64,000 bases of DNA, from contig JAPETS010000005.1 of assembly GCA_026023565.1 (NCBI GenBank), forward strand, positions 372,001 to 436,000, in the 5' to 3' direction. The DNA comes from Cirrosporium novae-zelandiae (lineage: Eukaryota). The notes under the pieces were generated by a model. That model had not been told where the DNA came from and made no database searches. It was given only the letters and a program-made list of their open reading frames with translations. Within the stretch, counting starts at the first letter, position 1, and each line of letters opens with the position of its first letter. Position numbers and translations under genes: made by a program. This document shows positions 5,590 through 50,859 of this stretch, piece by piece.

Positions 5590-7412
5590 ATGGCCGCCCT
5601 TAGCCCCAAGGTCTACATCTGGTGAGTCTCGAATATCCTATTCCAGTGTGTCGTCTTATGCTCATTTCCCTTTGGGTTCGCCTGCCTTACCGCAGCAACA
5701 TGCAACTCTTACTATGGTTTCGATAACTCGGTATATAATGCTGTTCAAGGCTCTGACAACTGGATTGAGTGGTTTGGTAACCCCGATGCCAACTTAATTG
5801 GAGGCATCAACACCGCATATGCCGTTGGTGCCATTATTACCGGTTTCTTCTTTGGTGGTCCAGTCGCCGACTTCTTTGGTCGAAAGATAGGCATGCTTTT
5901 CGGAAGTGTTCTTGTTATTCTCGGTACCTTCTTGGAAGCCTTTTCCCCTCGAGGCAACGTAGGTTGTTTTATCGCTGGTCGCGTTGTCATTGGTATGGGC
6001 CAAGGTCTTGCGTTGTGTAAGTAAACTCTATGCCATCAAACGACATCCACTGATATCTCAGCTTCTGGTCCAACTTACATCGGTGAAATTTGTCCGGCAA
6101 AGATCCGTGGTACAGTTATGACCTTCTGGCAGGTAGCCTACAGCGTAGGGATGTTCTTTTGCTTCTGGATCAATTTTGCCTGCAACAAGCATAAGGAAAC
6201 GCTTGGTCAATGGGATTGGCGCATGGTCGTCATATTTCAAATATTGTGTCCCTGCATATTGCTTGTCCTAATCCCTATGCTTCCTGAGACACCAAGATGG
6301 TATGTTATCCTGATAACTGCAAAGGTTATTTTCTTTCTATAGGTATGATGAAAGCTTATGCCCTCCTGTGCAGGCATATCAAGCGACACGGCGACATTGA
6401 AAGTGCCCGTCGAGCCCTTCAACTGGTCCGTGAAACCGAAAAGGAAGTTGAAGACGAGATTGTAGCAATCCGCCAAGCCATTGAGTTCGAAAAAACAGCC
6501 ATCTCTAGCTCTTATTCCGCTCTTTGGAAAGATCCATCCGTTCGCAAGCGTGTTCTGCTCGCCATGGCCATGAACGCAGGTCAGCAGTTGACTGGTCAAG
6601 GAAGTCTGAGTACCTACTCAACCAAAGTGTACGAGAAAGTATTCAAGTCATCTTCAACAATTGCTTTGATCAACGCTTTAAATGCTACCTTCGCCATTCC
6701 CTTTACTTTAAATGTTACGTGGACAGTCGAGCGGTTTGGCCGTAAATTCCTTTTCATAGTTGGAGGTATCGGTATGGGAATGTGCATGGTCATTGCCGCT
6801 ACCGTTGAGACTCAAACGCCTACCCATGATGGTGCCAAAACCGAGTCCGTCGGTATCGCAATTGTGTTCCTCCTGTTCCTGTTCATCTTTTTCTGTAAGT
6901 TCCATCTTAACCCCCCCCTTCTTTTTTTTTTCCTTTGCAGAGCTAGCACCCTGCCTACCAAACATATGAACAGGGACACAATACTCAATACTAACTCTTC
7001 TCCAGACAAACCCTCCTGGGGCGCTGTAACCTGGATCTGGTCTTCCGAAATTTTCAGTATGAACGTGCGCGCCCAAGGTGTAGGAATGGCTGGCCAAACA
7101 CAAAATATCACTAATGCCATAGTCCAACAATTCTTCCCTCTCTTCCTCCAAAAATGTGGCTTCTACGCCTTCTACATGTTCGCAGGTCTCGACATCCTGC
7201 TAGCTACATTCGTCTTCTTCTGCATTCCCGAAACAAAGGGAGTCTCGATGGAGGAAATGGATACGCTATTCGGTGGTGTCAGCCATGTAGAAAAGGGAAG
7301 CGCGTTACTGCATTTGGAAAATGCGGCACCGGCTACGCCGACTGGGTCGTCGGGTGTCGAGCTGCAGGAAGATGCGTCTGGAAGAGTCAATGCTGTTCCC
7401 GAGAAAGTTTAG
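5590..7412 (+). CDS. MFS sugar porter (hexose/lactose permease-like), 5 exons
   Basis: YYGFD, ADFFGRK, PETPRW, GQQLTG, VERFGRK, SEIFSMNVRAQG and PETKG motifs. Introns 5622-5675 (non-canonical acceptor), 6017-6061, 6300-6373 and about 6895-7005. Confidence 0.9.
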
Positions 7413-8140: not shown

Positions 8141-11079
<2,939 letters not shown>

Positions 11080-11605: not shown

Positions 11606-13426
11606 CTACATTCTAGCTCTTCTCCCGTCATCATTCTCCCTTCGCTTCCACTCCCTCATCTCCCTCGTCCCCAAACTTCCTACACCCCCCTCGCCCCTAC
11701 GTTCCCATCCCCCCAATCTCACAACTAAACATGTTGCATTATCCCCTCCAGTTCCCACCTCTCCTGCGTACTTTACCACAGCTCTAGCACCCTCTTCCGG
11801 TGTCTTGGCCTCCTTGATAATATCCACGACTTCCTGATCGCTAGCCTCATCTGTGATACCATCAGACATGAGGACAAGGAATGAATAGGCTTGAGGGGGT
11901 AACTGTGTGAGAAGGACGTCTGGCTCGGAGGAGACGCCGAGACGTTTGCTGCGGATGTCCCCGAAGGCGCGAGAGTTCGCAAGCCCGGAGAGTCGAGATT
12001 CGCCGAAGGAGTCAGTGGAGATGAAGGAAGCGCCGCTCCGGCGCAGACGGGTTGACTCGAGAGGGGTGGTAGGATGGTGGGGGGAGGTTAGTGGAACAGG
12101 AAGACCGGTCAAGGTATTACAGAGAATAATGCGAGTGTCGCCCACGTGGGCGGTGAGAATTGTGGAAGGTGAGGTTGGGTGATAGAATGGGGTTGGGTTC
12201 GGTGTGGAGACGAGGGCTATCGAGGCGGTAGAACCACCTAAGAAGGGTGGTTTGGCGACAGTTTGAGTTATTGGATTTACAGAGGTAGACTCCGGAGCGT
12301 GAGAGGGAGATGAAAATGTGTCACCTTCGTTGAGAGGGCGGTCGGCTAAACAAGAATCGGAAACATGACTGCTTCTGTGAGTTTGAAGCTTGATAAAGTC
12401 AAGATCTGCAAGAAGGAAGGCATAAGCTAAGACTTCGTATACTGTTGGGGATGGAGGCCTATCTCCTGGAAAGTTAGTGGTAGGGGAGGTAGAGGAAAGC
12501 GAGGGGGTCCCGTATGTGAAGTATGGGGGTCGGAAACGGTTGAAGTAGCCACCAATCAGGGATTTGTAATCTTGGACTAGGGAATTTTCGAGATCAGCAA
12601 TCTTTTTATTAGTTGGTGTTACCGTTTCCGGCAGATTTGTATCACTGTGGGAGAATTCTGAAGATAACGATTCTTCGTAGGAGGGATTATAGCCAGGGTA
12701 AGGTTTTGTCGTTTTCAGATTTGACTGGAGACCAAATTCCTTTGCAGCTCTTTCAATATACCCATGTAGGTTTTCTCTCAAATAATCGCTACATTCATTC
12801 CCTCCATGTCCATCGAATACTCCAAAATAAAAGATCTGTGGATCTCCACTTGCCCCTTCCGCTGAGGTCCCTTCTCCTTTCATCAGCTCTCTTCCCGGCC
12901 TTGTCAGGGATATGGGAGCTCTTTTTGCAAAAGCAGGCAGGTCAATAACTCCCGCTTGATATGCATCTTCATTGTAGGGTCTCATGCCCCTGGAAACGGA
13001 TGCTCCAAAGTGATGTTTTGCACTTCGTATTGGAATCCGAACAACTGTGGTATCTCGCGATGTACCGACTATTTGTGGTGGTATTGCCGGTGGAGGACCT
13101 TGTCCCGTGTGGGGTGTGGAGGCGGAGCGGGGGAGTTTATGGTGGGGCCCCCTGATTGATCTCTCGTCAGGGTGGACCGAAGAGGATGGAAGATGAGTGA
13201 CAAAGTAATCGTGGAAAGAGCGTCGAAGAGAATTGGTGTCATGGTGTGAACAAAGGGGTCTTTGTGGACGAGGGGTTGGATGGTGGAGGTAGGAAGATAT
13301 AAAGTCTGGGCAGTGAGATCAGTGCCACTATTTCCATAAACAACTTCGAATTGGGATTATACTATAGCTGTCTGCTAGAGTCCAGCCTAGGGGCTTGCTT
13401 CTGCAAACCATTGAAACCCCAAACAT
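11606..13426 (-). CDS. PTC6: Mitochondrial-type PP2C phosphatase (Ptc6-like)
   Basis: RSFHDYFVTHLP, RPYNED, FGVFDGHGG, AHVGD, LANSRAFGD, SDGI and GDNAT motifs. Frame is open upstream of the ORF-track ATG; a predicted short intron (about 13306-13362) links to an ATG at 13411 or 13426. Confidence 0.85.
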
Positions 13427-14631: not shown

Positions 14632-15617
14632 ATGGCCGTAACAGAAAGGAAGCAAGTCAAAGCGACGGAGGAGCAAGTTGTCAATGGAAATGGCTCTATA
14701 CACGGCCCTGCTTCTAATGAACCCAAGGAGAATATCTTCCTTTTCTGGCCTAATATTATAGGTACGGTACCACTAAACATAATACCGTGCGAGGAGGGCT
14801 AATGTACATTCTCCAGGCTATTCGCGCATCATTCTTGCAACAGCTTCTCTTTATTATATGCCTCTCCATCCTCGAACATGCTCGTTTCTCTACAGTATTT
14901 CCTGCCTTCTCGACGCCCTTGATGGTTACGCTGCGCGGCACTTCCACCAATCAACAACATTTGGAGCGGTCCTCGATATGGTGACAGATCGATGCACAAC
15001 TTCCTGCCTCTTAGTTTATCTCGCCTCCGCATGGCCTCGTTATTCCATTGTCTTCCAAGGTTTGATTAGTCTCGATCTTGCTAGTCACTATATGCATATG
15101 TATGCAACCTTGGCAATGGCAGGGTCTGGTCAAAGTCATAAAAAGGTGGATTCAAGCAGGAGCTGGATCCTGAACAAATACTATACGTCGAAGGTTTGCA
15201 CATCAAACTATGTCTTACTCTGACCCTTGCTAATTATGAATCTAGACTGTTTTGTTTATCTTCTGTGCTCTGAACGAACTCTTCTTTATTGCACTCTATC
15301 TTCTTTCTTTCTCGTCTCCAATGCTGTCACCGTCACTCCTCCAGTCTCCGGCGACATCATCTGCACAGCCCGGAAGCCCAGCACATCCCGCACCGTCATC
15401 TCTATTTATTAATCCATGGAGTGCAGGTGCTATGGAACTTGCAAGGGCGAACAAAATGGACAGTTTTTGGCCTTGGGTTCTTACTGGAATTTCCTTCCCA
15501 GTTATGGCGGCAAAGCAATTCGTCAACGTGGTCCAAATTTTCAAGGCATCCAAGTGGTTAGAGGAAGGTGATCTAGCTAAGAGACGGGCTGAAGGCCTCC
15601 CCAAAAAGACGAATTAA
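14632..15617 (+). CDS. PIS1: CDP-diacylglycerol--inositol 3-phosphatidyltransferase
   Basis: ENIFLFWPNIIGYSR and DALDGYAAR...GAVLDMVTDR CDP-alcohol phosphotransferase motif; two introns. Confidence 0.95.
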
Positions 15618-16120: not shown

Positions 16121-17437
16121 ATGCCTGGTTTCAATATCGTCGTCTTCGCCGGTGACGGCGTGGGGCCTGAAGTGAGTTTAAATCTTGAGCACCTGCGAAA
16201 ATAGAAAGAAATTGAGGTTGACTCCTTGCCAATGGGATTGAATGTGATAGATTACAGATGAAGCTGTCAAGGTACATCTATCCGAAATACTCTCCTCTAT
16301 AGTACCGCCGCATGCTCATATTTCGCCAGGTATTGAAAGCCATCGAGAAAGCCCGTCCAGCTGTCACCTTCAACTTCCAACCTCATCTCCTCGGCGGCGC
16401 CTCCATCGACGCCTCTGGAATCCCATTAACCGACGAAGCCCTCTCCGCTGCTGCCGCCGCTGATGCCGTATGGCTAGGTGCTGTCGGTGGACCTGTATGT
16501 CCCCCGCATTCAAATTCTCTCACCTATTTCCTACTGCGTAGCTAACCTCATGGCCAACAAACAGAAATGGGGCACCGCCGCCGTCCGTCCCGAACAAGGC
16601 ATCCTGAAGCTCCGCAAATCCCTCGACACCTTTGCGAACCTCCGCCCAGCCTTTTTCCCCACCCCGGCCCTCGCCTCCCTCTCCCCCCTAAAAGAAGACG
16701 TTGTCACCGGCACCGACTTCGTTGTCGTTCGTGAGCTCACTGGCGGCATATACTTTGGAAAGCGAGAAGAGGCGAAAACTGAAGGCACCGAGGAGAAAGC
16801 ATATGACACGGAAGAGTATTCTCGAAGTGAGATTGAAAGAGTGGCGAGGTTGGCAGGGTGGTTAGCAAGACAGAGAAGCGGGGAGGAGAAAAGGGTGACG
16901 AGTCTAGATAAGGCAAACGTGCTAGCGACGTCAAGAATGTGGAGGAGAGTCGTGACCGAGGTGTTTGAGAAGGAATTCCCGGATGTCAAGGTCCAGCACC
17001 AGTTGATTGACTCAGCGACGATGTTGGTGGTGAAGAATCCGACGAGTCTGAATGGCGTTGTTCTTACAAATAACATTTTCGGGGATATTATTACTGATGA
17101 ATGTGCTGCTATTATCGGATCTCTCGGTCTTGGTCCCTCCGCTTCCCTGGCCTCTCTGCCTTCGCCCGAAAAGCCAACGGTTAAGGGTATCTATGAACCT
17201 ATTCATGGTTCTGCTCCGGATATTGCAGGCCAAGGCGTTGTCAACCCCGTGGCAAGTCTGTTGAGTGTGGCTATGCTGCTGAGGTATTCCCTGGGAATGT
17301 CCAAGGAGGCCGACTTGGTGGAGAAGGCGATTGGAACGGCGATCGAGGGCGGAGCCAGGACAAAAGATATCCAGGGCAATTGCACGACGAAAGAGGTTGG
17401 CGATAGAGTTGTTGCGGAGTTGGAAAAGCTGTTGTGA
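16121..17437 (+). CDS. LEU2: 3-isopropylmalate dehydrogenase
   Basis: [39 protein letters not shown] and [13 protein letters not shown] motifs; three introns. Confidence 0.97.
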
Positions 17438-17837
17438 CTTTATGGCAAAGCGAGACTATGAAAGCCATATAAAGTATGTTGGATCAGGTGTCTTTGAAAA
17501 GTAGTTGACAATGTTAAAATAGGAATTCCTCTAGGCTACTGCCTTGGATATTTTTGGGGGTATTATACCATGCGCAAATAGTGCCAACAACGCCAGTAGC
17601 ATAAAAATATGCAAATAAAAAAAACCCTCCCCCCAATCTTCAGCCCGAAAGCGGTCTAATTTCTCCAGACGGTTTCAGAGCCATCTTCAACTTGCCTGTT
17701 ATGCTAAATCGTAAAAAGCGCATTCAAAGGCAGTAAACTCCAAGTCTAACCCCCGCCTCGTAGTAACTTTTTGTCATGTACTTTTGTCGTAATATTATTT
17801 TAAAAAAAAGGGTCTCGTATTAGCCGTCGACTGGTGT

Positions 17838-18824
17838 TTATCTCAAAACCGCATCTCCCATCCACTCTGCCTCCTCCAAAGGCACCACCTTCCCCTTCTC
17901 ACGTTCTTCCCGCAAAGCCTCCTCGGCCCTCAAAGCAGCCAAAGATTTCCTTATAGATTTTCTCTTGCCCCCAGCACGCCTCTCAGCACCTCGTTCCTCC
18001 TTCCCCCAAATCTGGATGCCCCTGACATGCGTATCCTTACCGTTCTGATGATTCTCCAGGATTCGGACCTGCAGCACCATACACCTGAGCTCATTTTTCT
18101 CCCTAGGTTCCTTATCCCCTCCGTTGGTCTCCTCCTCGTTCAAAACACCCAGGTAACCCCCCCTCCCTCCCCCAACACCCTCAAGCGGCATCTCAACCCA
18201 CCCGGACGGGGTTTCACCATGCCACTCGCCCACCTCGATAAGATCGTAGGTGCTGAAACCAGCGAAAAAGGCGATGCGGGTGGGAGTGTAGGATTCATCG
18301 AGGTGGAAATCGAGGTAGAGGCGCAGACGGGTGATGGAAACAAGCTTGAAAAAATGCAGATGGATGGTATGAGGCTGGGGGCCATCGGATTGCCAGTATT
18401 CTTTTGGATTTGGGGATAGGAGGGACGAGACTCCGTTGGTTGGTTTGGAGGTCGAGAGGAGGATGTGCGCGAGCGGGAGGAGCGAGCGCAGGCCTATTAG
18501 GGTTGGATCGTAGGCGTCGGGGTCATCTCGGGAGGGGGAATTGGCGGCCGAGGGTTCGCCTTCTTCTTCTTCTTCATCTTCGTCCCCCTCTTCGCCTTCT
18601 ACTTCTTCTTCTCCCAGGCCCCCATCCGAGGTCGTTGTTGCTGTGCCCGGGGTGCCATTTCTTGTTGTTTGCGTGCGGCCTCCCGTTGTGGGGGGGAGAG
18701 CAGGGACACGCGCGATCGGCGTGATGGGCGGAGGTCTTTGCAAGGTGGTAGGGTTTTCGGGAGTTTCCGAGGGGAGTTGGCGCTGAGTGCGATTGGTGTT
18801 TCGTGTACGTTGGGCAGGCGGCAT
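17838..18824 (-). CDS. APC10: Anaphase-promoting complex subunit 10
   Basis: YWQSDGPQPH, DESYTP and ENHQNGKDTHVR motifs, C-terminal LR tail, acidic low-complexity N-terminus. Confidence 0.93.
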   Translation of the reverse strand: MPPAQRTRNTNRTQRQLPSETPENPTTLQRPPPITPIARVPALPPTTGGRTQTTRNGTPGTATTTSDGGLGEEEVEGEEGDEDEEEEEGEPSAANSPSRDDPDAYDPTLIGLRSLLPLAHILLSTSKPTNGVSSLLSPNPKEYWQSDGPQPHTIHLHFFKLVSITRLRLYLDFHLDESYTPTRIAFFAGFSTYDLIEVGEWHGETPSGWVEMPLEGVGGGRGGYLGVLNEEETNGGDKEPREKNELRCMVLQVRILENHQNGKDTHVRGIQIWGKEERGAERRAGGKRKSIRKSLAALRAEEALREEREKGKVVPLEEAEWMGDAVLR

Positions 18825-19634
18825 TGTGGTAGGAACTTCTCGGTGGAGGGAGGGGGGATTTGTTGCAGGGGTCCGGGCTGTTTAAAGCTCTAATTGAGGT
18901 GATAAACGATTATTATAGTCGGTGGGAGGAAATCTCCCGAGGGGACGAGATTGTTCAGTAATACCACAGTACTATGGTAGGACAATAGGACGAGGTTTGT
19001 AGATGTTTTGCTACATTAGGTGAGTTTGCTTGGTTTGCGACTTTCCGCAGTATTCCTTTCCTTGTCCTTTACCTATATTTTCTATGGCCACCTACCCCCA
19101 TTCTCAATTCCCAGTTCTCAGAACCCAAGAAGAAGTCGCACTCTTGAGCTAATTACCTAGATACTTACTTATCCAATGCGCATATAAAAAACAAACAAAA
19201 AAAACACATTCTATTTACTTCATCTTAAAGTACTATTACTGTATACTCCCTCATCTCATAATAGTGTCAAAATTCTTGCTTACGCCCACCACACGCTTGT
19301 TGCATTACATCGTAAATTCAGATTCATGTTATTTTCTCGCTTTTATTTTCTATTTTTTTTTAATAGGTTGCTAGGTAGGTGTATAAGTAGGTGATTGGTA
19401 TGAGCTTGGGTCTGGATCGACACGTGCGTTGGCGGAACTGAATGAAAATAAGATGGAGGCCGATTGTGCTATATCGTAGGGTTGGTTAATGAACAAAATG
19501 AACATGAAAATGAGAGTTTGATTAGTGCTTTGATGGTTTACTAATACCACAATATACATTTTCCCAGTTTCTCATACTCACTCATCCACAATGTTAAGCA
19601 CACTTTAACAATTGAAAACACACGTGGAAGCTAT

Positions 19635-21412
19635 CTATTTCGAATCATATCCTCGAAGTTCATCCATCAACTCTCTCGACACATCCACCCCATCCCTAAC
19701 TCTCCACCTCAACATCGGCCCCTCAATCGCACTTGAACTGATCCCTAAGTTGGAATTCCCCCTCCCTGTGTCTTCCATAGCCCAACTCGGCTGCCCCAGC
19801 TCCAACCTTTGCATCTTCCTTCCCAACCACAGGTTCGAAATCCGCCAACCACATCAACCAACCTAGCGCCAGTGTCAACTCCGCATAAGCCAGGTGTTTC
19901 GCGATACAAGATCTCGGACCAAGACTGAAGGGCGCAAAAGCGGATTTCGCAAGTGCGATTTGGTCCGGGTCGTTGAGGGTACAGCGTTCGGGTCGGAAGG
20001 CGAATGGGTCCGGGAAGTATGCGGTATTGTGGTGTAGGCTATAGGGGCTGACGCCGGCGGCGAAATCTGCGGGAATGTGATGATAGAAGCAGATTGTGGC
20101 GCCGGATTGGCCTGCATCGCGGTAGAGGGGGTCGGGGATGGAGGGAGAGGGCGGAGGGACTCATCGATGCAGGCGCGGAGGTAAGGTATGTCTTGGAGAG
20201 GTTGAAGGCGGATAGAGGGGAGGGTTAGGAAGGTACTGCGGAGAAGGTGAGTCAGGTAGTTTTTGGCGGAGGGGTTGCGGGAGAGGTAGAAAAGAATGCC
20301 AGATAAGGCGGTGGATGTTGTGTCGCCGCCGGTGGCAATCATGATGTTGGCTTCAGAGAGAATCTCAGTTGTAGAGAGTCAGGTCCTAGTTTCTGGGTCT
20401 TTGGCCGGGATCACGAATGACATGATATCCCTACGAGGCTTGCTATCGTTTTGAGCTTCGATGCGCTTGAGGCCCATTTCTCTGCCTGGGGCGAAGAAGC
20501 GGGTTCGGCGTTCTTTTATCGAGGGAAGAAGGTATTTGTCGATACTCAGCCATCAAGGCTTGTTGAAACGGCTGAAAAGAGCTGGGTAATGGTAGCCCAT
20601 GAGACAGCGGTGGATATGACCTGCTAGGGCGCTAAAAATGAAGTGGAGAGAGGGGTTGAGTAGGAGGTTGAAGGAATCGTCGAAGGCGAGAGATGAGATG
20701 ATATCAAGGGTCAAGAATAAAGCTATTAGGTCCTGTGAGTATAGATTGCTGAAGTTTGAGAGATGAGAACAGACTCCAGGTTGACGTTTTCTTTGGTTGG
20801 GCCCAAGACTTCGTTAAGGGTGTAGCAGGATCAAAGATATCATTATGATCTTCTTTTTCTTCTAGCATCCTCTTACAGGAATAATTGACATGTTTCAGGA
20901 TAAACGGTTCGGATGCTCGGATAGCGGTATCAGAGAGGCCCTGGCTAACAATCCCTCGTTTTCGGCCATGTATCGTCTTTTCACGGCAGCTGTGAGTGCT
21001 CTAGACATTGGGAAGTACTAGAATAAGACATAGGACCGCCTTTTTTTGAAATTCTTGCTGGCGGTATAAATATCCTTCAGGGCTTGAGGTCTGTTAATGA
21101 TGAGGCAATCTGGTCCGTAGTGAACGAAATCTCCTAAGTGAAAGATCAGTCTGCAAATAGAAAAAGGTTAGAGGAAAGACAGACCATATTTCTCGTGGCA
21201 TCCCAGACATCGATATGAGTATCTTGAAAATAAGCATGATAAAGAGTATATCCATAGGTTATTTTCGCAAAGAAAGGTCCCGGATACTTGGCATAAGGAT
21301 GCAAGATGAGTCTGTAGAAGCAGAGACCAATCACCAGAAATAGGATGAGAATGATGGCCTTGACGAACAGATGAGAGTCAAACAGACCCTGGGTAAGTTC
21401 CCGTTGCAACAT
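19635..21412 (-). pseudogene. Cytochrome P450 pseudogene
   Basis: HPYAKYPGP, I-helix TGGDTTS, ESLR and heme motif PFSLGPRSC are recognisable but lie in different frames. Frameshifts (in CHEKYG near 21200, after ESLR near 20140) and internal stops. Confidence 0.85.
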
Positions 21413-25261: not shown

Positions 25262-27175
25262 CTAGATCGCTTTAGTTCGAGAGAACAGACTGCTGTAGAC
25301 TGCGTCGACTACAGGCTGTGCACTGATTTGCCGACCACCAAAAAATCTCCCGTTGAGACCTTTGATAGCATTTTCGCCCCCCTGGACACGTTCAAACTTG
25401 AGGTAAATGTCTCCCTGGGTATTCGGATCTAGTGCGATGTGAACAACATGACCATATTTATCCTCGCATTCCGCTCGAACATCATCTTCGAGCTCTTTTA
25501 TCCAAGCATCACCTTCTTCCCTAAACAAGAGTTAGCTTTAGGTTTCAACCATACAAAGAGATGCTTACTCGGTTGGATCAAACATATTACGAAGCATTAC
25601 ACACCTGCTCGCTTGACTCACGCTCACAGGTAGGGGTTTCGTTTCATTACGGGGCTTGGGCATTTGACGTTTCGAATCGGCACCATTGGCCTCGGGGGTT
25701 GGTTCATCTGTTCTGGCAAGTTTCCTCATCAATGCATCTCTGCTATAGTTGTTGAAATTCACACCGGCAACATCTGTATCATCAAGTGCACTAGCACCGC
25801 CGGTACCCTTGTCATTATCCCGTCCACCGGCGCGGTCGAAATTGCCACCAGAGCCACCGGCTTGAGCACCACGTCCACCGTGGCCGGAGAAAGCAGAGCC
25901 CTGGAAGTTGGGTTGGTTTTGGCCTTGGAACCTCTGCAAGAGATTTGCAGTGGATTCGGGGGTGAACTTATCGTTTCCAAGGCCAACTCGGATAGGACGA
26001 CCTGCAAGGTCAAATCCATTCATCTTTTCTAGTGCCTCGCGAGCCTGGTTTGGATCACGGAACCTAAGTCATATTAGTAAAGTATATCTTGAACTAAGGC
26101 AGTATACGTACTGAACAAATCCATAACCTCTACTACGGCCCTGCTCCTCTTTCTGTAATTGTACAAACTCAAGCTCCCCAAAGGGTTCGAAGACATGCTG
26201 TAGGTCGCTCTCGGTGATGCTAAAGTGGATATTTCCGACATAGAGCCGGTGGAATGGTATAGAGTTAGGATTGCCGCTTCCACCCTCGGGGTTACGAGCT
26301 TGGCGGTTCTTTTCTGCTTCAGTGAGCTGAGCAATGATCGGAATGCCTAGAAGCTTTTGGCCGGTAAGTTGAATAGCGAGAGGCACAGATTCCTCATTTT
26401 TGAATTCCACATAGCCGACACTGTATATGTTAGTAGTTGAAATCAGTGTCATAAACGAAACCTCTTACCCTTTAGATCTGCCACTAACCCTGTCTTTAAC
26501 GATCTGAGCTTCTTTGACAGGTCCAACCTTTTCAAAGAAAGCAATCAATTCTTTAGTTCGTAAACGGGCAGCAAGTTGTTGCACAAACACAGTACGGCGA
26601 TCGCGTTCATCTTCTGTTAACTGGGGGGTTGGTGATGGGCTTCGTCTTCTTGTACTTTGAGAGCGTTTACGGCCATTATATCGGCGATGTCTGTCATCAT
26701 CGCGATCGTCATCTCGGCGGCTCCTACCGCTTGGCCTATAATATCTGTCATCACCAGGAGATCGAGAGCGGCTACGAGCACGACCAGGTCCCCGATAGAA
26801 GTCACCTCCAGAGCCGCGATAGTCGTCAGAATCATCGCGAAAACGATCTCGACGAGAGTGACGGCGGTCACTGTCACGGCTTCTGCTTCTCTTTCTGCTT
26901 CTGTGGCTTCCATTAGCACTACCGCGTTCACTCCGTGGGCTTTTCACATCATTTTCTAAATCTCGATCCCTGCGTTTGTCTCGACTTCGATCTCGCCGTT
27001 TGCGATCGCGATCGCGACTGCTGTCTCGATAACGATCTCGTTCTCGGCGGTCATTGCGTTCACTTTTATGGCGATCATCGGCGTCTTTCGAGTCTTTCGA
27101 AGGTGCGTCTGGTGCTTCTATGGAGCCTTTTGCGGCGGTGGATTCAAGGAGGGCTTCTACGTCGAGACCTGACAT
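25262..27175 (-). CDS. RBM39/CAPER-type splicing factor (Pad-1/Rsd1)
   Basis: RS/RD-rich N-terminus, RRM1 ([18 protein letters not shown]), RRM2 (LYVGNI..RGYGFVQ), C-terminal UHM (NMFDP..GRFFGGR); three introns. Confidence 0.93.
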
Positions 27176-27784: not shown

Positions 27785-29065
27785 TTATTCAACCTTCATT
27801 GGCTTTGGAGCCTCGATAATCATTGTCCCGAAGACAATATCCCACATCTTGCTCGTAACACCAAAACCGTTGTTGTAATCGGCGAAGTGATGTTCAAGGT
27901 GCCATTTCTTCAATTCCTTATACCACGGGGGGAGACTGTCATCTATTAGCTTGTTGCACAACAGAATGTTGACAGGGTATCCTTACGCCTTGTGATGAAG
28001 GAAATAATGTGTAAGATCATACATGATGTACCCGTAGACTGCTCCACAAAAGACCGCAGTTCCTGCGTACCAATTGTACGAAAAGGCGAAATGTGCAAAC
28101 CTGTACCATGGTGTGGCGAGCACCAAGAATAGCGTAGGAGGCATCACTAGACGATACTTATCCATCGGAAGGTAGTGATGAACACCGTGAAGAACGAAAT
28201 GTAGTGTGATTCCGACACGATTGTCTGGAAGATATCTAATGCAAGTTAGATACAGCGTGAATAAATAATACAAGGAAACCAACTTTTCCATATGAAATAA
28301 GAATCTATGCATAAGATATTCTACTAAAGTCCATGCGAATAGTCCAAGTGCCAGGTAAGGAGTAGCCTGTCCAATGGGTAAATGAGAGAAAGCGAGGTAC
28401 GCCCCATAGGTTGTAGGCGGTACCCAGCAAATGGGAACCAACCACCAAGGGGTTTTACTCAAGGGTTCCAAGAAGTTGCCAAATAATGGAGCAGAAGCAC
28501 CTCCTCTGTAATGCCTTGGCCGATGGACCTGCTCTAAATAGAAATCCTTTTTGAAACCGCCGAGCCATACTTGTGGAAATAGTGGACGATCCAAATCCAA
28601 GAAATGGAACTTTTTGTAGTCATTACGGATATCTGTTTCCTTGATCAGATCCTCGGCAGTGGACATGCCAGTTGCAGGATACAATGGCCTATCCTCAGAA
28701 ACAATAGCTTCATTCTGTTCCAATTCTTTCAACCCGGCTTTAGTTGGTGGTAGAGGAAGGATGGAAGCGGGCTGTTGACTGTTCACGGCAGTCTTCAATA
28801 CTTGTTCTGTTGCCACGAATCCAATCAGATGATCATCAAGTATTTCATACGCAGTTTCTGAATGAGTATGCGATATTTCATCCTTTAGGATCTCTGTAAT
28901 ATCCTTCCCCGCATGTTCCAGGATGAGGTCACCGCCACCTGGATGGTCATCGAGAAAGTCGGTAATATCGTAAACTTTGGGACCTACAGTCACATAGCAA
29001 GATTTTGCAGTGTTCTGGCCCTGCACTTCCGCAAGAGTAATAGTTGGAAGAGTTCTGCCAGGCAT
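27785..29065 (-). CDS. SCS7: Sphingolipid fatty acid alpha-hydroxylase with cytochrome b5 domain
   Basis: HPGG b5 motif; His boxes HRFLFH, HGVHH, HYFLHH and HLEHH; two introns. Confidence 0.95.
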
Positions 29066-31013
29066 GGTGATAACCCGGATGATAACTAGTGGAAAACCAA
29101 AGCCTTTAGAGGAAAGGTCCCGATAAGATAATCGCAGGCAATGGGTCCACACTGCTCGATACCAACAATTGAGGGGAGATGGAAGAAAGAATGGAGTTAT
29201 TGGAGTTAATTCTAGACCTGAAATATGTGAGTTGAGTGCTATGTACAAGGGAAAGATGGAAGACGCGTTGCTTCTTGTTTTCAATGGATGATTTCGGGAC
29301 GGATAAGTAATTCCCGGATTTATTTTATGCCATGAAAAGAATCAGATGTAATCAAGGCCAGATCACCTGACTTACCCGTGCTTATTTCAACCCCAAAGTC
29401 CCCTCTTTCTCACAAACCATAAAACTTAGGCAGGCACACATTATCATTTCACCCACCACCATGCATACTCTTAAACTACTGTACAGTACATGCACATATG
29501 AAAAGGTGAAAAAAAAAAAAATTTAAACTCGGTTCCTGAAACGCAGGAGCTTTACTTCAACCCCAGCCAAAAAGCAAAGCCAAAATAATCACTTTCTAGT
29601 TACCTCTCTCTCCCTCCCCCTCGTTTTCTTTAAAAGGAAACGAGCGCCATTTATGTAATTATGCATTCTGTATTTATGACAAGTAACCACAACAAAGAAC
29701 ATTGGGGCATTAAACTCTTAGTGATCTATATATATCTGTCCCAAACTATGTAAATCCCTAAACTATCAAACATTAAAATGTATTCATCCAGCGGTGAGTA
29801 TTAGTTAGAAGGATTTCACCAAAATATCAAACGAGAAAAAAAAAATTCTTCAAAGAAATCAAAGCCAACACAAAAGCTTCAAACCTCAAAAGCTAAAAAA
29901 ATCTTTCCATTTCATCCTTGTGCCTAATTTTTTTTCCTTTTCCTTTTTCCAAGTGCATATAAACCTATCTCCACACCCCTCCCCACATCCCGAACCAGCC
30001 TCGGCCTTAAGTGATCATCATGATCTACGTTACATCAATATCCGCCGTCGCGATATGTTCCTCAAACACCAGATAAGGTACAAGATTCAAACTCTTTTAT
30101 TTTAAAAAAATTGTTTAGCTAAACTAGGGGTCTCATCTTTGAGCTGTTAAGGAAGTAGAGGGATGCGCAGCCGACCAGGCGAGGGAATGAGGATGGGGAG
30201 GGGAGAGGAATAAGTGAGCATTTGGTTTTTGTTCTGGCTTGTGTCTCTACTTGTATATATAGGAAAGGGAAGGGATGATCCTTTATGGCCTATAGTAAAT
30301 CAGTTATATAAATAATTTGTTTTTGTGGTAGTGGTAGTGCGGAGGGTGGGTTCAGCAGGATTGGTAAATATTTCATATCATTTTTTCGCTACTACTGTTA
30401 TATCCTTGTAGTTACATATGGAGGGCTTAATTAATTAATTAGCAGATATAAGCAATGTGGCCTATAATCCTATAACGATAGTAATACAACCAACAAGGTA
30501 CCTAACAGCAGAGTGGGGCGCTATGGAAATAGGAAACCCCAACCCAAGAAATATTTTTTCCTTGAAAAAAAAAAACGGTCTGTCTCATTGTGCTGCGTGT
30601 AAGGGTATATGAGTATATGAGCCTGATGCTATAGAACCAGATGCGAAAGTGCGGCGCAAAAAATCGCGACCATCATAGTCCTTGAGATACATGCAATACA
30701 AAAAAAGACGATGACAATGGTGATTATCCTTGTTATAGTTATCCCCCCACCCCATCCCATCCTATCCTATTCTACCCATTCCTTGTTTCCTTTGCTGTTA
30801 TGATGGCATTCTCCCCAGTCCATTTTCTTTCCAATGCATGCATTCCCTGTTGAATTTCGCTTGTTTCTGTCGATGTTCCATAGATTTCAGGTAGGTATCT
30901 AGGTCTGTGTGTTATGTGATTGATTGGTTGGGCACGAGCTTCCTTCTTTTCTTGTTTCTCCTCGCCTCACTGTGCTTGTGTTGTTACACACATTAACAAG
31001 AATCTTGCATCAC

Positions 31014-32259
31014 CTACCGCTCCCCGACTCTCTCCTTCAAAGCATTCCAAGCCTCCTTCCTATATTTTTCCGCCTCCTCTCTCCTATTTTCGGCCCTGTA
31101 GACACCTCGTCCTACAATGACCACATCAGCACCACCTTCCAGGATCGCTTCTCTAGGTCCCTTGTATTGTTGTCCTAGTCCATCTCCCCTCACACCGTTT
31201 ACCCCTGGCGGAGGTAATAGTACACCAGGAGTAAAAACCAAGAAGTTACTTTGAGGAAGATTATTAAGCGGTGATTGTGCAATGAATCCAATGACAAAAT
31301 CGGGATGTTGGCGAGCGAGCTCGACGCAGGTTGATGTGTATGAGGGGGTCATGAGATTGGAGGCAGAGGACATTTCGGCGAGGAGGAGGAGACCACGATG
31401 GTTGGGAAGTTGGGGAAGGATTTCAAGCGTCAATGGAGGATGTTCGGTTGATGGTGGTGCATGTGTAAGCGCAAGAGGAGAAAGAGGGGGCGGTAGAGCT
31501 GGAGTTATGTGTTGTGAGATTGTGGTTGTGAGACCAATGGAATTTTTACGAGTAGGGTCGTAATCTTGCCCGGGATCTAAAGTATCATCGTCATCATCGC
31601 TAGACTCTTCTGTTTCTGTATTGGATTCAATATCATTTGGTGCATGATGGTTAGTGCTGTCGGGGAGGTCATTGAATTTTGGCCGTGATGAGCGGCGAGG
31701 AGGATTCGTAGCGGATATTTCGGTAGAGACGGAATGATTCATATGGAGGGTGGAGGCATGCGCAGCTTCCTTGAGAGCGGTCACAATGGCTGGTCCAGGA
31801 AAAATATGGGCATTTACAAGGGTAGCCCAGCGGACAATCTGGAGTGGCCCAGAGGTATATTGCTTTTGTACGGTGCCTAGTTCTTACATGAGTATTGCTT
31901 CAACCGACAAGTTTATGAATAATATGGAGGGACTTACTCCCAATGTCACCAAATTTCCGGTCCTCGAAAATAACAAAGCGTTTCCTCTCAGCAATTTCTT
32001 TCAGTGATTTTGCAGTTTTTGGACTCCAATCATCAATAATGTCTGCATGTGTTTTCAGGACGCAGATGCTCTCTCCAACATCTTCGGCCAAACTTAGTAG
32101 TTCAGCTGAGGTATGGACATCGGCAGAGACACAGAGATTGGTCTTCTTCAGGTACATAAGGTGGAGAAGGTAGCAGGTGATGGGATGCGTATGAGGTAGA
32201 CTGGCCCGGACATTAAAGGGCAGGGCAGTGGTCTGCTTGGGCGATGGTTGAGAAGGCAT
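31014..32259 (-). CDS. URA3: Orotidine 5'-phosphate decarboxylase (pyrG/pyr4)
   Basis: NLCVSAD, LKTHAD, FEDRKFGDIG, RGLLLLAEMSS, GDGLGQQY and IVGRG motifs; one intron; long acidic internal insertion. Confidence 0.96.
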
Positions 32260-33709
32260 GATAATGGTGGTGGTGGATGTGGATGGCGGAGTGAGGGAGA
32301 TGCAGAATTGGGGGGAGGAATTCTCGGTCGAGGAGTTGAGAGAGATGGGCGGTCTCGACGTTGAAGTATGGTCAGTCACTATCCAGAGCACAGGTCAGAT
32401 ACAGGTCAAGTCAAATCGGCTCATGAACAGCAGACCACTTTCAGAGTTCTCAGGCAATCTGGACACATGCTTACCTTTCACAGTCATGGGCGAGATGTCA
32501 ATTGCGATAAAGGTTGGAGATGGTAAGGTTCTAGGGATCCCTGGATACTGTTCGTGTCCTTGGGTGTTTTGGGGTACTTTTTTGGGTCTTCTGGGTGATC
32601 TGGTGTTCTTTTTTAATTATGGATTCTTTTTTTTTTAACTTAGGATCGGCTGGTTTCATGCAAGGACTGTTAAGTCGGGTCTGGATCTTTGCACAAAAGC
32701 AGTGCAAGAATAATGATATCTCTTCCTATGTACTTAATTGTACTTAACTGTACTTAATTATACTTAGCCCTAACTGACATGGTTCTGTTGTAGTGTGTTG
32801 TAGTGTGTTGTTTAGGGCAGCCCCAGCTGACTTTTGTCCCACAGCATTTGCCTTTCCTTGGACATCAGAGTCCCAAGGAACATTTTTGCCTTTGCCTTGG
32901 CTTCCACTAAAAAGTAGAATAAGTTTGATTTTGGATTTTTGATTAAAAAAATAAATAAAAATCTTTCTCTGTTGTCCTCTCTTGTCTAACTACTTGCTAA
33001 TGAAAAGCTAAAAAAATACTTAAATGTATTATTATTCAAAGTATTAGACTATTGACATTAATTTCATATTTCTACCTGAGGTAATTTTTGACTAATGATA
33101 CTTACAGTAATATTTCTCCGCCTTCCGGTAGACCTCCCCGAACCCTGTAAATCAAATCGGCGGCCCGTTACCGGCTGTACCGCTGATATGCATATTGAAC
33201 TTCTCCTCCTGCATCCTGCAGCTAATTAACTCCTTAAGGCAGTTATCTACCTTCCATCTTTTTTTTATTTAATTTTTTTTACATTTCTGCAGCATCATTA
33301 TTTTATCGACCTAACCTCGATCTTTTATTGCAAATCCTTACCAATATTGCACTTTGTTCACCGGTTGTACTGTACGTACGTATGCCTTGGGCCACTTTGA
33401 AGATCATCCAAGAAGCCGCGAATTAGAGCCATTACACGTCAACTATAACTATATATTTCTCCAAAGAAACTCGAAACTATAATGTATCCGCAATACAAAA
33501 GCCCCGCTTCTGTGGCACTGTGAGACATTCACCTCCTGTCTATTATCTCATCAACCATTCTCAAAAATTCTCTCATGTCCTGTCTTGTCCCTCAATTATT
33601 AATGCTTTTTGCGTAGTACCGAGTAATCCCAATCAAAAGTCCTCGGCATTGGGGAACGTACCCGCCCCTGGATTTCTCCGGATAACCACCGTTGTTCAAA
33701 ATTCCCTCC

Positions 33710-35782
33710 CTACTTGTCTTTCTCGACGCTATTAATCTCTCGCTCTGCCAACGCCCGTTCTTTTTCTCCCAATTCTCCTGCTCCATACCTGATCACAGCC
33801 CAGTCAGCATCTATCCGTACTCGCTCGCATCGCCCTTTCTCGACTTCACTTACCAGGAAATAACAATGAGTCCCAGCACAGCAGCTGCGCAACTGAATAC
33901 AAGTGCAATTATACCCTTCTTTGTGAATCCTGCAGGCAAGGGAGCTGGAGACGTATTCTCCCCTGTCAGATCTGTAACGTCTTCCGTATTACCAGCAGCA
34001 TTGCCCTTGTACGGCATATTCCCAGCCTTGCATACATCGATGTGATCTTGAGGGATAGTGATTGTTTTCTGTAACTCATCTGGAGCTTCAATCATAGTGG
34101 CGATGAGTCCAGAGGCAACATGCCATTCGATGTGACAATGGAAGAACCAAATGCGTATGATCATGTCAGTAGAAATCGGCAATGGAGCGCAGAACACTTA
34201 TCTGGATTGTCTGCTTTGAATCGAATAACAAAGTTTCCATTAGGCCTGACCATGAGGGTATCTCTTCGCATTGGAATCGAAGGTAGTGTTTCGTTCTGCA
34301 CATAGAATCCAGCGTCGTCATCCGATCGCACGACAGTCTGAAAATTATGACCGTGAAGATGGAAAGGATGCTTGCCGGCATCGTTATTGTTTACTACGAT
34401 CTCGACTACTTGGTCTTTTTGCAACAAAAAAGCATTGGTATTGGAACCATAAACCTCAAGATTGCTAGCAAGGTCCCCGGTAGACAAAGCTGAGTAAAGT
34501 GTCGGTACTTTTGGGCTAACATAAGTAACATCGTTGAAAAAGGCACTTTGTATGGTTAGCCACGTATGATCCTGTAGACGTGTAAGTGGCGTGCATACTA
34601 ATTTATTCCATCACCAAGGTTATCCATCTTGACTTCAAGGTTGAATGAATAGTCGACCTCATCATACAACTCCTGTCGGTCATAAGGGACCAAATTGAAG
34701 TCATCAATAGGATTAAATTCATCCACGTCGGCTGCTGTCGGTAGAGCTTTTGAGTCGTCATAAACCAACCAACCAGTGACGTTAGGGTTCAGGCCACTTG
34801 GAATGGTATCGAATAGGTCCTAGAGAATTAGAGTTAGAAAAGGCTAGAGATCGTGATTGAAAAGATGATACCTCGTCCATGCTCCCAACAATTGCAAAAT
34901 TAGAAGAGGTTTCATTTTTCGTCTTTAGCAAAATGGAGACTCTTTGAGCTGCGGTAAGATAAATCATATCGGCTTCTGTACGTTCGGTCCAAACTCCGTC
35001 AAGTTCTACAATAGTCATAGTATGATTCTCAAACCAGACATATTGACCGGCGAAAGCACCCATGTTGATCATGCGAATTAAGTATGTCTTGCCAGCCTCA
35101 ACTGAAACAGTGAGATTTTGGGTGTCGTTCATCAAGGCAGATTCTGGAACTGGTTCAGCTCCCGTGGGGTTAATGACATTCAGAAAGCTCTTCAGTAGTT
35201 TAGGAATCTGGTCATGGTACCAATCAGAGAAAGTTAAGACGAGCTCCTCATCATATGCATCTGCGTATGGAGAGTCAGGATCGTGAATGATTAAAGGTCC
35301 TCGGAGTCCGTCTGGATATTGGCCAGAAGAGTGTGAATGATACCAGTAAGTGCCAGATTGATTGGCCTGTTACAAAATCAGAAAATCCAAATAATGAGAC
35401 ATTAAACCCTAAGAAGGATATTTCTTACCGTGAAGTTATACGTAAGAGAAGACCCAGGAGGAATATTACATTGAGTAACACCTGGCACACCATCCATGTG
35501 ATTTGTTCCATTCATGAACAAGCCATGGAAATGCAAGCTAGTTGATTCGTTGCCAAGTTGATTATTCGCATTAACGACTATACGGTCTCCCTTTGTGGCA
35601 GTTATCTGAGGGATGGGCCATTGTCCATTGATCCCGATGACTGGGCGTTCGAATGCTCCATCTGGATTCTTGTTCACCCAAGAAATATTGAAATCGTATG
35701 TTCTAGTTGTAGCTTGGACGAGGAGTACAAAAGGGACGAGGAGTAAAGCTCGGATAGGGAAGTTCGACAAAGACAAAGCCAT
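33710..35782 (-). CDS. FET3: Iron-transport multicopper ferroxidase (FetC)
   Basis: Signal peptide; Cu ligands [17 protein letters not shown] and HCHIEWH; C-terminal TM helix; several introns. Confidence 0.95.
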
Positions 35783-35946
35783 GATGAGTCGGGAGTTGAA
35801 CGACTACCTAGGATTGAAAAACAACCTTTTGTGATAGAAGCTTAGTGGCTGAGTATTATACCAACTTGATTAATTTCTCCTGCGACACAGCTTTGTGGTA
35901 TTTTCAGATTGATAAGATGGTGGTGAAGGGGAGATTGAACTGGCGG

Positions 35947-37527: not shown

Positions 37528-38902
37528 ATGGGTAACAACGTCTTCGCTGTGCCAGGTTAGTTATACGCTTCATACCATGAGCCAAAATAATTAATTGCAA
37601 TGTATATAGTCTTTTTCATCTGTCTTCGAGAAACTCTCGAAACAAGTATCATCGTTTCCATCTTGCTTGCTTTCTTGAAACAGGCTCTTGAGCCAGAGAA
37701 GAATAGGGATGTATACAAAAGGCTAGTCAAGCAGGTGGGCTTAGATTTTAACATGTGAATATCGTCTTCGAGTAGGTATTGACTTGTATCTTAGGTCTGG
37801 TGGGGCACAGCTTGCGGTTTGGGCATATGCCTTGTAATAGGCTGTGGAATGATTGGTGCATTTTATGGTCTTGGAAAAGATCATTGGGCTGGCACGGAAG
37901 ATTTATGGGAGGGCATATTTGGCCTCATAGCATCTATCATTATCACATTGATGGGGGCTGCACTGCTTCGTGTCTCAAAGCTGCAAGCAAAATGGCGCGT
38001 CAAACTGGCTGCAGCTTTGGAAACCAAAGACCTAAAGCAAGGTACCGCTCGTACTCGGTTCAGGCGATGGTGTGAGAAATATGCAATGTTTATCCTTCCC
38101 TTCATCACCGTCCTACGAGAAGGTCTGGAAGCCGTTGTTTTCATCGGAGGTGTCAGCTTAGGTCTCCCAGCGACATCGTTCCCGTTACCGGTCGTGACTG
38201 GTCTTGGGGCAGGTTGTCTGATCGGTTATTTCATCTATAAGTATGCCTAGAAATCATTCAGCGTGTCGACAGTGCAATACAATAGCTGACACTTTCATCT
38301 AGAGGAGGAAATTTCGCATCCATCCAGATCTTCTTAATAGTTTCCACTTGCTTCCTTTATTTGGTAGCCGCGGGCCTATTTTCTAAGGCAATCTGGTTCT
38401 TCGAACAAAATCGCGTATGTATTGACGTTACTCCATATCTCCATGAAATGTTGACATGGGAATAGTGGAACCATCTCACTGGCGGAGACGCAGCAGAAAC
38501 GGGCTCCGGTGCTGGGTCATATGACATTCGTAGCAGCGTGTGGCATGTTAACGTAAGTATGCCTGGCTATAGTAGCTTGACGGTATTCTAATACCATTTT
38601 AGTGCTGCAATCCCGAACTAAACGGTGGAGGAGGATGGGGTGTTTTCAATTCTCTCCTTGGATGGCAGAATTCTGCCACTGTTGGTTCCGTTGTCTCTTA
38701 TAATGTGTACTGGATCGTTGTCATTGTTGGCTTCCTCATCATGCGATACAAGGAACGCTCTGGTCATTGGCCTTTTATGAAGTCACCGGTTATGGACGAA
38801 GTTTCCTCGAATCAAAGCCAAGAAACTCACGATGGCGTCATTACAGGAGATAAGGGGGTGGAAGTTGCAGCTTCTAAAGAGGTTCGAAGCATTGAGGGAT
38901 AA
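37528..38902 (+). CDS. FTR1: High-affinity iron permease (FtrA)
   Basis: RETLE and REGLE iron-permease motifs, multiple TM helices, divergent from FET3. Confidence 0.96.
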
Positions 38903-48736: not shown

Positions 48737-50859
48737 ATGTTTATGTTTCGTTCTTTGGCCAGAAGCCGTTCAGCTGCTACAGCTTTCAGGATATCAAGCT
48801 CTCCAAATTTCCCAAACTCTCGATTAACCCTCAAGGTCACATACCCTGAACTATTATAGATGAATATTGGCTAATATTTGGTTGATAGTCTCTTAAAATG
48901 GCACCTTCAAATTCGCGACAAACTCATACTGCAGCAGCTCTCGCAGCTGGTATGTACCCTACTTTCGTATGTGAAGTTGTGAGACGCATTAACTAATTCG
49001 AGCCTTCGAACCTTAGGATACAAGGAAGATAAATCCAAGGGACCAATGTTAAGATTTGAGGACTCGCTGCCCCGATTACCAGTTCCAACCCTGGATGAGA
49101 CAGCCCAACGCTACCTCAAGTCTGTTCACCCTCTCTTAAACCAAACTGAATATGAATATACAAAGAAGGTCGTCTCGGACTTTATTCAGCCAGGGGGAGT
49201 AGGCCAGGACCTGCAAAAGAAATTGATTGCCCGACAGGAAGATCCTACTTGCAAGAATTGGATTATAGACTGGTGGAATGACGCTGCATACCTGGGCTAC
49301 CGTGATCCTGTCGTTCCCTATGTTAGCTACTTCTACTCACATAAAGATGATCGAAGAAGAAAAGATCCAGCGAAGAGGGCAGCTGCTCTTACTACTTCGG
49401 CCTTGGAGTTCAAGAAGCATGTGGACAACAAGACTCTTGAACCAGAGTACATGAGAAAGCTTCCTATAGCCATGTCATCCTATGAGTGGATGTTCAACGC
49501 TTGCCGTGTACCCTCTAAGCCTGCAGACCACCCAGTCAAATACTCGCCTGATGATCATAAATATATACTAGTTATCCGGAAGAACCAGTTCTTCAAGGTT
49601 ATGACCGAAGTCAATGGTCAGCAATTGAACACCTCTGAACTCGAGCAACAGTTCAGGCGTGTCTACGAGAAAGCTGAAAAATCTCTCGCAATCGGTGCTT
49701 TGACCAGCCAGAATCGCGATGTGTGGACTGATGTATATCAAAGGCTACGCGATGCCAGTCCAGCAAATGCTCAAGCTCTCGAGGCCATTCAAGCCTCATC
49801 ATTTGTAGTTTGTCTTGATGATGCTTCTCCCGTCACTCTTGAGGAACGAGCCCGTCAATACTGGCACGGAGATGGTTGCAACCGCTGGTATGACAAACCA
49901 TGCCAATTCATCGTTAATGATAATGGTACCTCCGGCTTCATAGGCGAGCACTCGATGATGGATGGTACTCCTACCCATCGGTTGAATGACACTGTCAATG
50001 CTCTCATCTTCGGCCAAAAACTCGACTTTGAGAACACATCCATCCGATCCGACCTCCCCGAACCCCAAGCCATCCGGTTCCATATCAATCCCGAAATCCA
50101 AAAAGACATCAAAGCCGCCCAACAACACTTTGAACAACAGATCGGACAGCATGAACTCAGAGTCCAGGCCTATCAAGGCTATGGCAAAGGGCTTATCAAG
50201 AGGTTCAAGTGCTCGCCAGATGCCTACGTTCAGATGATTATCCAGCTTGCGTATCATAAGATGTATGGTAAAAACAGGCCAACTTATGAATCGGCAGCTA
50301 CTCGTAAGTTCCAAATGGGAAGAACCGAGACGTGCCGAACTGTCAGCGAGGATAGTGTGGCTTTCTGTAATGCTATGGCAGATCATACTGTCTCACCCCA
50401 GGAGTGCGCGGTCCTCTTCCGAAAGGCTCTTAATGCTCATGTCAAGTACATTTCGGATGCATCTGATGGCAAGGGCGTTGACAGACATCTCTTTGGCTTG
50501 AAGAAACTACTTGAACCTGGACAGGCACCTCCTGAAATTTTCAAGGATCCTGCATTTGCGTACTCAAGTACATGGTATATCAGCAGCAGCCAGTTAAGCT
50601 CTGAATACTTCAATGGTTATGGGTGGAGTCAGGTGGTGGATGATGGCTGGGGTATTGCGTATATGATTAACGAAAACACGTGAGTTGCCTTTGTCGCGCC
50701 AACACACCTCCCGCTGCTAACAATTTATAAAGCATCCAATTTAATGTTGTATCAAAAGGCTTGGGAAGTGAAAGGATGAGTTTCTATCTCAACGAAGCTG
50801 CAGGTGATATTCGTGACATGTTGCTTCCGACCTTGGAGGCACCAAAGGCGAAGATGTAA
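48737..50859 (+). CDS. CAT2: Carnitine acetyltransferase, mitochondrial/peroxisomal (AcuJ)
   Basis: LPRLPVP, EHSMMDG, TYESA and GVDRHL motifs; Arg/Ser-rich presequence; intron 48836-48888; second ATG at 48898; C-terminal AKM. Confidence 0.95.

Follow-up and report, generated by a model that had tools for sequence, protein, structure and literature searches.

A canonical peroxisomal targeting motif in frame behind the UGA-CU stop codon of a fungal LEU2-type gene, probably by coincidence

Is a peroxisomal targeting signal encoded behind the stop codon of a leucine-pathway gene in a filamentous fungus and, if so, does the fungus use it? Readthrough-derived peroxisomal isoforms of fungal metabolic enzymes were reportedly described by Freitag et al. 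2012 (Nature), and a sequence-only reading of the locus analysed here had proposed such an isoform for a 3-isopropylmalate dehydrogenase. The gene lies in a stretch of 64,000 nucleotides, which was analysed as a whole and is called the window throughout. Its parent enzyme is encoded as follows:

16121..17437, + strand: 3-isopropylmalate dehydrogenase (IPMDH) gene, LEU2/leuB type; four exons, 369 aa, no N-terminal presequence

The exons are located at 16121-16171, 16251-16271, 16330-16494 and 16565-17437, and the introns between them are bordered by GT..AG. The 369-aa product is letter-for-letter identical to the database protein P0001, which NCBI has named '3-isopropylmalate dehydrogenase' and which derives from a metagenome-assembled genome of Cirrosporium novae-zelandiae, a member of the class Xylobotryomycetes. 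The whole protein reaches 469.4 bits with the NCBIfam leuB equivalog model TIGR00169 (cut-off 353.2) and exon 4 matches Pfam Iso_dh with an E value of 5.7e-106, whereas the NCBIfam models for tartrate, homoisocitrate and isocitrate dehydrogenases all stay far under their own cut-offs. The label of a LEU2-type IPMDH is therefore sound, and the gene had been correctly recognised as that of the NAD-dependent enzyme. In an alignment of 44 fungal sequences 106 columns are invariant, and the protein retains every one of them, among them the positions of the motifs R..R..R, Y, K and D..D..D, which we take from the structures known for IPMDH to be the catalytic ones. The Iso_dh domain covers the protein from residue 5, the N-terminus entering the fold directly, and no PTS2-like motif was found in IPMDH by eye. 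By these features, the parent enzyme fits the soluble cytosolic type that carries no other sorting signal.

Positions 17426-17461 read AAG CTG TTG TGA CTT TAT GGC AAA GCG AGA CTA TGA, and 17435-17461 translate as stop-LYGKARL-stop. The letters and coordinates on which the proposal of a peroxisomal isoform had been built, a UGA-CUU followed by a KARL tail behind the LEU2 stop, are thus exact in both sequence and translation. The elements of this region are:

17435..17440, + strand: stop TGA followed by CTT, the UGA-CU core readthrough context (sequence; motif in PMC4207609)
17438..17458, + strand: in-frame extension of seven codons, L-Y-G-K-A-R-L (translation)
17447-17449, + strand: Lys at position -4 (translation)
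17450-17458, + strand: PTS1 tripeptide ARL (formula quoted in PMC12316961)
17459..17461, + strand: second in-frame stop TGA, which makes ARL the extreme C-terminus of any readthrough product (sequence, translation)
17462..17837, no strand assigned: remaining 3' spacer to the convergent APC10-like gene, which lies on the minus strand with its stop at 17838 (ORF list; Pfam ANAPC10)

Because the source is a metagenome-assembled genome, we considered that the first TGA could be polymorphic or an error of sequencing or assembly, in which case the real protein would end directly in KARL. No support for this was found. Over 16900-17800, an independent Logan contig from run X1 (the probable source sample) agrees with the window in full, at a depth of about 359 and with no other letters, and the end of IPMDH coincides, by eye, with the end of several homologues (...ELEKLL, ...ELEKIL). 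Both observations identify the TGA at 17435-17437 as a real stop and leave an error or polymorphism as the least credible of the explanations weighed here. Alternative splicing as a route to the PTS1 was ruled out: the extension stands directly behind the stop, and its 24 nt are too short for a fungal intron, as we infer from the sequence.

The stop could also be removed at the RNA level. Stage-specific A-to-I editing of UGA to UGG would turn the stop into a Trp codon, as the genetic code dictates, and would yield the extended protein in quantity. Such editing is known from Sordariomycetes, with a preference for U in front of the edited A; at this stop the A is preceded by G, which argues against editing. 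The region 17426-17545 folds with -22 kcal/mol (z +0.45), and 127 of 200 shuffled sequences fold at least as well. Accordingly, no stable or stimulatory RNA structure beyond that of shuffles is predicted behind the stop within 17426-17545, and no hairpin around the stop, which likewise speaks against editing. Although stage-specific A-to-I stop loss has been described for DBF2 of F. graminearum (PMC13123824), we regard editing of the LEU2 stop as very improbable. Taken together, editing and sequence error account for a very small share of the probability.

The context of the stop is more telling. A UGA with CU behind it suffices for efficient readthrough in U. maydis; the level is set mainly by the first two post-stop bases, and this motif needs no RNA structure (PMC4207609, Stiebler et al. 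2014). The sequence-only reading had invoked the leakiness of UGA-C but had described CTT as one base off the best motif. For fungi this undersells the match, since UGA-CU suffices and the validated Rpe1 of U. maydis itself carries TGA CTT. According to Table S1 of the same study, 66 U. maydis genes end TGA CT and just 3 are scored 'Targeted', namely Rpe1 (TGA CTT), Pgk1 (TGA CTC) and a Tpi-related gene (TGA CTA). The authors treat these three as true cases, so that the published yield of matches combining TGA CT and a PTS1 is high in this species (PMC4207609).

A rival explanation is that the cryptic PTS1 is selected. UGA-CU readthrough would add xLYGKARL when a few ribosomes decode UGA as Trp, Arg or Cys, and Pex5 would import the extended subunit together with a piggy-backed partner; the result would be a minor but used peroxisomal IPMDH pool of the same class as Pgk1, Tpi1, Rpe1 and LDHBx. 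We consider selection of the signal possible, though rather unlikely. The exact core motif argues in its favour and, like the high yield in U. maydis, against a coincidence. There is also a precedent in the same subphylum: Pezizomycotina use readthrough-derived PTS1s, for example in GAPDH of A. nidulans (as cited in PMC12316961). On the other hand, UGA CUU served as a low-readthrough control in human cells, where UGA CUU G of DHX38 gave 0.27% readthrough in HeLa cells compared with 0.61-2.29% for UGA CUA contexts (PMC4359377, Schueren et al. 2014). The prediction of no stimulatory structure behind the LEU2 stop also counts against selection.

The tail itself was judged from sequence by its match to a formula and by the Lys at -4. 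The tripeptide ARL conforms to the formula [A/S][K/R][I/M/L] for a canonical PTS1 (quoted in PMC12316961), and the description of K-A-R-L as a canonical PTS1 preceded by a basic residue can be upheld. A canonical tripeptide with Lys at -4 is a further point for a selected signal. A gene for a carnitine acyltransferase and one for a malate dehydrogenase are located further along the window:

48983-50859, + strand: carnitine/choline O-acyltransferase gene (Pfam Carn_acyltransf, E 4e-209)
53378-54020, + strand: malate dehydrogenase gene (Ldh_1_C); a terminal intron is followed by the end TAG ATA CTT TAA

Carnitine acyltransferase is peroxisomal in other fungi. The last exon of the gene in the window, which follows a short intron (about 50679-50732), ends ...LPTLEAPKAKM-stop; the final AKM, again preceded by a Lys at -4, is a canonical PTS1 and the same kind of tail as in the LEU2 extension. 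The ending P-K-A-K-M implies that this fungus uses tails of the K-A-[KR]-[LM] kind, which argues against a coincidence behind LEU2. The malate dehydrogenase of the window has neither a terminal PTS1 nor a readthrough PTS1. An annotated malate dehydrogenase of Cirrosporium novae-zelandiae was not among the 120 matches listed, perhaps owing to search length limits.

How often would such a combination arise by chance? Across the whole window, an in-frame stretch ending [SAC][KRH][LM] follows 19 of 6159 stop triplets in any frame (0.31%). In a first-order Markov model of the 3' spacer, a PTS1 tripeptide appeared in 143 of 40000 simulations (0.36%), and a tripeptide with a basic residue at -4 in 25 of 40000 (0.06%). 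TGA CT terminates 3 of the 105 stop-to-stop ORFs of at least 100 codons and makes up 109 of the 6159 stop triplets (2-3% of stops in the window). Among these 105 long ORFs, IPMDH is the only one with a PTS1-type extension. The joint event of TGA-CT and an in-frame PTS1 has a probability of about 1e-4 per gene and is rare within one window. This rarity, the position of IPMDH as the sole case among 105 long ORF ends and the low frequency of the tripeptide with a basic -4 residue in the simulations all weigh against a coincidence, and the joint probability per gene speaks for selection. However, assuming 9-10 thousand genes, we estimate roughly one chance case per fungal genome, which weighs against selection in turn. 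If chance should produce a perfect match to the motif about once in every fungal genome, then sequence by itself cannot carry such a claim.

Conservation could in principle decide between the two explanations. The best homologue of IPMDH in the protein collections, apart from P0001 itself, has 66% identity, and the collections therefore hold no near relative for comparison. None of the 119 other homologues listed, with 60-66% identity and from many Pezizomycotina classes, has a terminal [SAC][KRH][LMI], and neither has P0001. In the families with proven cases the PTS1 lies in the normal reading frame in some species (PMC4207609). The lack of such members among the 119 homologues therefore counts against a selected signal.

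Further orthologues were sought in metagenomes with the alignment of 44 fungal sequences, which matched at least 594 stretches, and 80 loci were retained. Locus L001 is the only fungal one among the 80 retained from the matches listed, with 61% identity in its best segment and 57% by tblastn. The second locus that was inspected, L002, has 68% GC and a continuous ORF of bacterial type, and the other 78 were taken as bacterial from their identity of 45-54% alone. The fungus-specific motif DIISDEASxIPGS, back-translated and run on the 80 loci, matched in L001 only. A scan of genome contigs for the same motif returned 13 matches, all bacterial with 41-46% identity, and a scan of viral contigs returned none. 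At a threshold of 80% likeness, runs X2 and X3, which belong to the same study, gave short conserved coding pieces and nothing across the stop.

The sequence-only reading had proposed to look for UGA-C and a PTS1 behind the stop of LEU2 orthologues. This comparison was made with L001 alone (57-61% identity), the sole other fungal orthologue among the matches listed that has DNA past the stop, and the signal is absent there. The stop of L001 is TGA TGG, followed by 42 codons ending NTAW, and a PTS1 was found in no frame within 400 nt behind it. This result counts against selection. Still, readthrough-PTS1 sites are patchy among species, and the region behind the stop has been called a 'playground for evolution' (2022 review, PMC9549241), so that one distant negative orthologue weighs little; to the same extent it offers little support for a coincidence. 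In the sequences of the available relatives, no conservation of the extension and its PTS1 is visible.

The parent protein is unusual in another respect. A quick tree, which carried a long-branch warning, gave IPMDH an end branch of 0.8 compared with a median of 0.13 and placed the protein, with weak support (SH-aLRT 82), outside the group of the 43 other sequences from Pezizomycotina. On average it is 63.9% identical to the others, whereas these share 76.6% with one another, and even the IPMDHs of Orbilia and Pezizomycetes still have about 74% mean identity. For the malate dehydrogenase exon in the window the difference is much smaller (81.0% versus 85.6%), which indicates that part of the acceleration is specific to the IPMDH gene. 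Near-invariant positions have been replaced (P184I, L190G, W112T, A180C and S181A in exon-4 numbering), several of which adjoin the DxxxD loop. The window IPMDH could be either the only LEU2 of the fungus, in diverged form, or an additional copy. Compared with canonical fungal LEU2/Leu2A, it has the leuB equivalog match, the 106 invariant columns and the usual position of the C-terminus in common, and differs from the LEU2 of other Pezizomycotina in its longer branch and the replaced positions. This unusual divergence would fit a changed role and hence selection of the signal. In its most specific form, a fast-evolving IPMDH from an isolated class, the Xylobotryomycetes, would have gained a working readthrough PTS1, and a minor part of the dimer, perhaps tuned by oxygen or stress, would enter peroxisomes; we hold this for doubtful, a little more so than selection of the signal in general.

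On balance, we favour the explanation that the PTS1 behind the LEU2 stop is an unselected coincidence which gives rise to at most a trace of import-competent product. The gene would then encode an ordinary cytosolic LEU2-type IPMDH with the TGA at 17435 as its true stop, and the seven codons behind it would be 3'-UTR sequence that is by chance in frame and by chance ends in the canonical PTS1 K-A-R-L. The weak termination context UGA-CU may allow a sub-percent to percent share of ribosomes to read through. IPMDH is a dimer, which makes piggy-back import conceivable: a subunit with the extension would probably be competent for import and could take its normal partner with it. The signal would nevertheless represent a lineage-specific by-product rather than a conserved and used peroxisomal isoform. 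Whether the signal is selected or not, we regard it as about equally likely as not that the fungus produces a little extended protein which is able to enter peroxisomes. The IPMDH reaction yields NADH, which peroxisomal redox shuttles must remove. To our knowledge, there is neither a peroxisomal source of 3-isopropylmalate nor a peroxisomal role for the reaction, which argues against selection.

The literature offers several systems for comparison. Pgk1, Tpi1, Rpe1 and Art1 of U. maydis share with LEU2 the UGA-CU context (exactly TGA CTT in Rpe1), a short in-frame PTS1 tail and a soluble cytosolic parent. However, they are backed by experiments and are found again in further fungi (PMC4207609), whereas the LEU2 extension is known as a stretch of sequence. 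Unlike these enzymes, the IPMDH family is not reported in the readthrough-PTS1 class in the literature that we searched: titles and the openings of abstracts contained no link between IPMDH and peroxisomes via readthrough, a scope outside which the tables of Freitag et al. 2012 and 2018 lie. In the 2022 review of dual-targeted peroxisomal proteins, the words 'leucine' and 'isopropylmalate' are absent (PMC9549241), and the seven supplementary files of Stiebler et al. 2014 contain neither 'isopropylmalate' nor 'leu2' (PMC4207609).

Mammalian LDHBx and MDH1x resemble the putative extended IPMDH as NAD-dependent oligomeric dehydrogenases with a very short extension ending [SA]RL (PMC4359377). The LEU2 extension, with seven residues and the recoded stop, is similar to that of LDHBx in length, and an extended mammalian subunit can co-import its partners, as LDHBx does with LDHA (PMC4359377); this likeness favours a selected signal. 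With most true cases (LDHB, MDH1, GAPDH) IPMDH shares its nature as a soluble NAD-dependent dehydrogenase of several subunits, a further argument against a coincidence. In contrast to LEU2 with its UGA CUU, LDHBx and MDH1x have the context UGA CUA (G); their readthrough has been measured, and their PTS1 is conserved among mammals (PMC4359377).

A third comparison concerns the NADP-isocitrate dehydrogenases. These are beta-decarboxylating enzymes distantly related to IPMDH, as reflected in weak matches of IPMDH to the NCBIfam models for NADP-IDH, and they include peroxisomal forms, with a C-terminal PTS1 in yeast Idp3 and a TGA CTA readthrough in Drosophila Idh. Their role is to provide NADPH for the beta-oxidation of unsaturated fatty acids, and we know of no comparable role for IPMDH. 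Overall, a peroxisomal IPMDH isoform would be mechanistically coherent but is uncorroborated.

If the signal were used, a branched-chain amino-acid enzyme would join the short list of readthrough-targeted peroxisomal enzymes, as the first peroxisomal isoform of a leucine-pathway enzyme. It would also represent the young, lineage-specific birth of a signal and point to 3' UTRs as a testing ground for dual targeting. If the coincidence that we favour is the correct explanation, the locus provides a calibration point: UGA-CU with a canonical PTS1 and a basic residue at -4 is to be expected by chance about once per fungal genome.

The surroundings of the gene were annotated with Pfam. Of the 51 ORFs that reach 130 codons or more, 43 were scanned; the 8 omitted overlap LEU2 or are antisense to recognised genes. 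In addition to the genes described above, the window contains:

1603-2214, - strand: DUF1989 (Pfam)
5626-7409, + strand: sugar transporter (Pfam)
8144-10540, - strand: MCM3-like helicase (Pfam)
11609-13318, - strand: PP2C phosphatase (Pfam)
14783-15220, + strand: CDP-alcohol phosphatidyltransferase (Pfam)
17841-18881, - strand: APC10, convergent with LEU2 (Pfam ANAPC10)
19726-20378, - strand: cytochrome P450 (Pfam)
25568-26464, - strand: RBM39-like RRM protein (Pfam)
27986-29341, - strand: cytochrome b5 domain protein (Pfam)
31017-32394, - strand: orotidine-5'-phosphate decarboxylase (URA3/pyrG type), two ORF pieces
34164-35803, - strand: multicopper oxidase (Cu-oxidase domains 1-3), three ORF pieces
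37795-38247, + strand: FTR1-family iron permease, divergent to the multicopper oxidase
60170-61452, - strand: polysaccharide lyase family 4 (Pfam)

Such a neighbourhood is ordinary for Pezizomycotina and shows no peroxisome theme. In the larger piece of the URA3/pyrG-type gene, 271 residues are matched to just 156 profile positions, which suggests an insertion or an unspliced intron. The multicopper oxidase and the FTR1-family permease form the usual Fet3/Ftr1 pair for high-affinity iron uptake.
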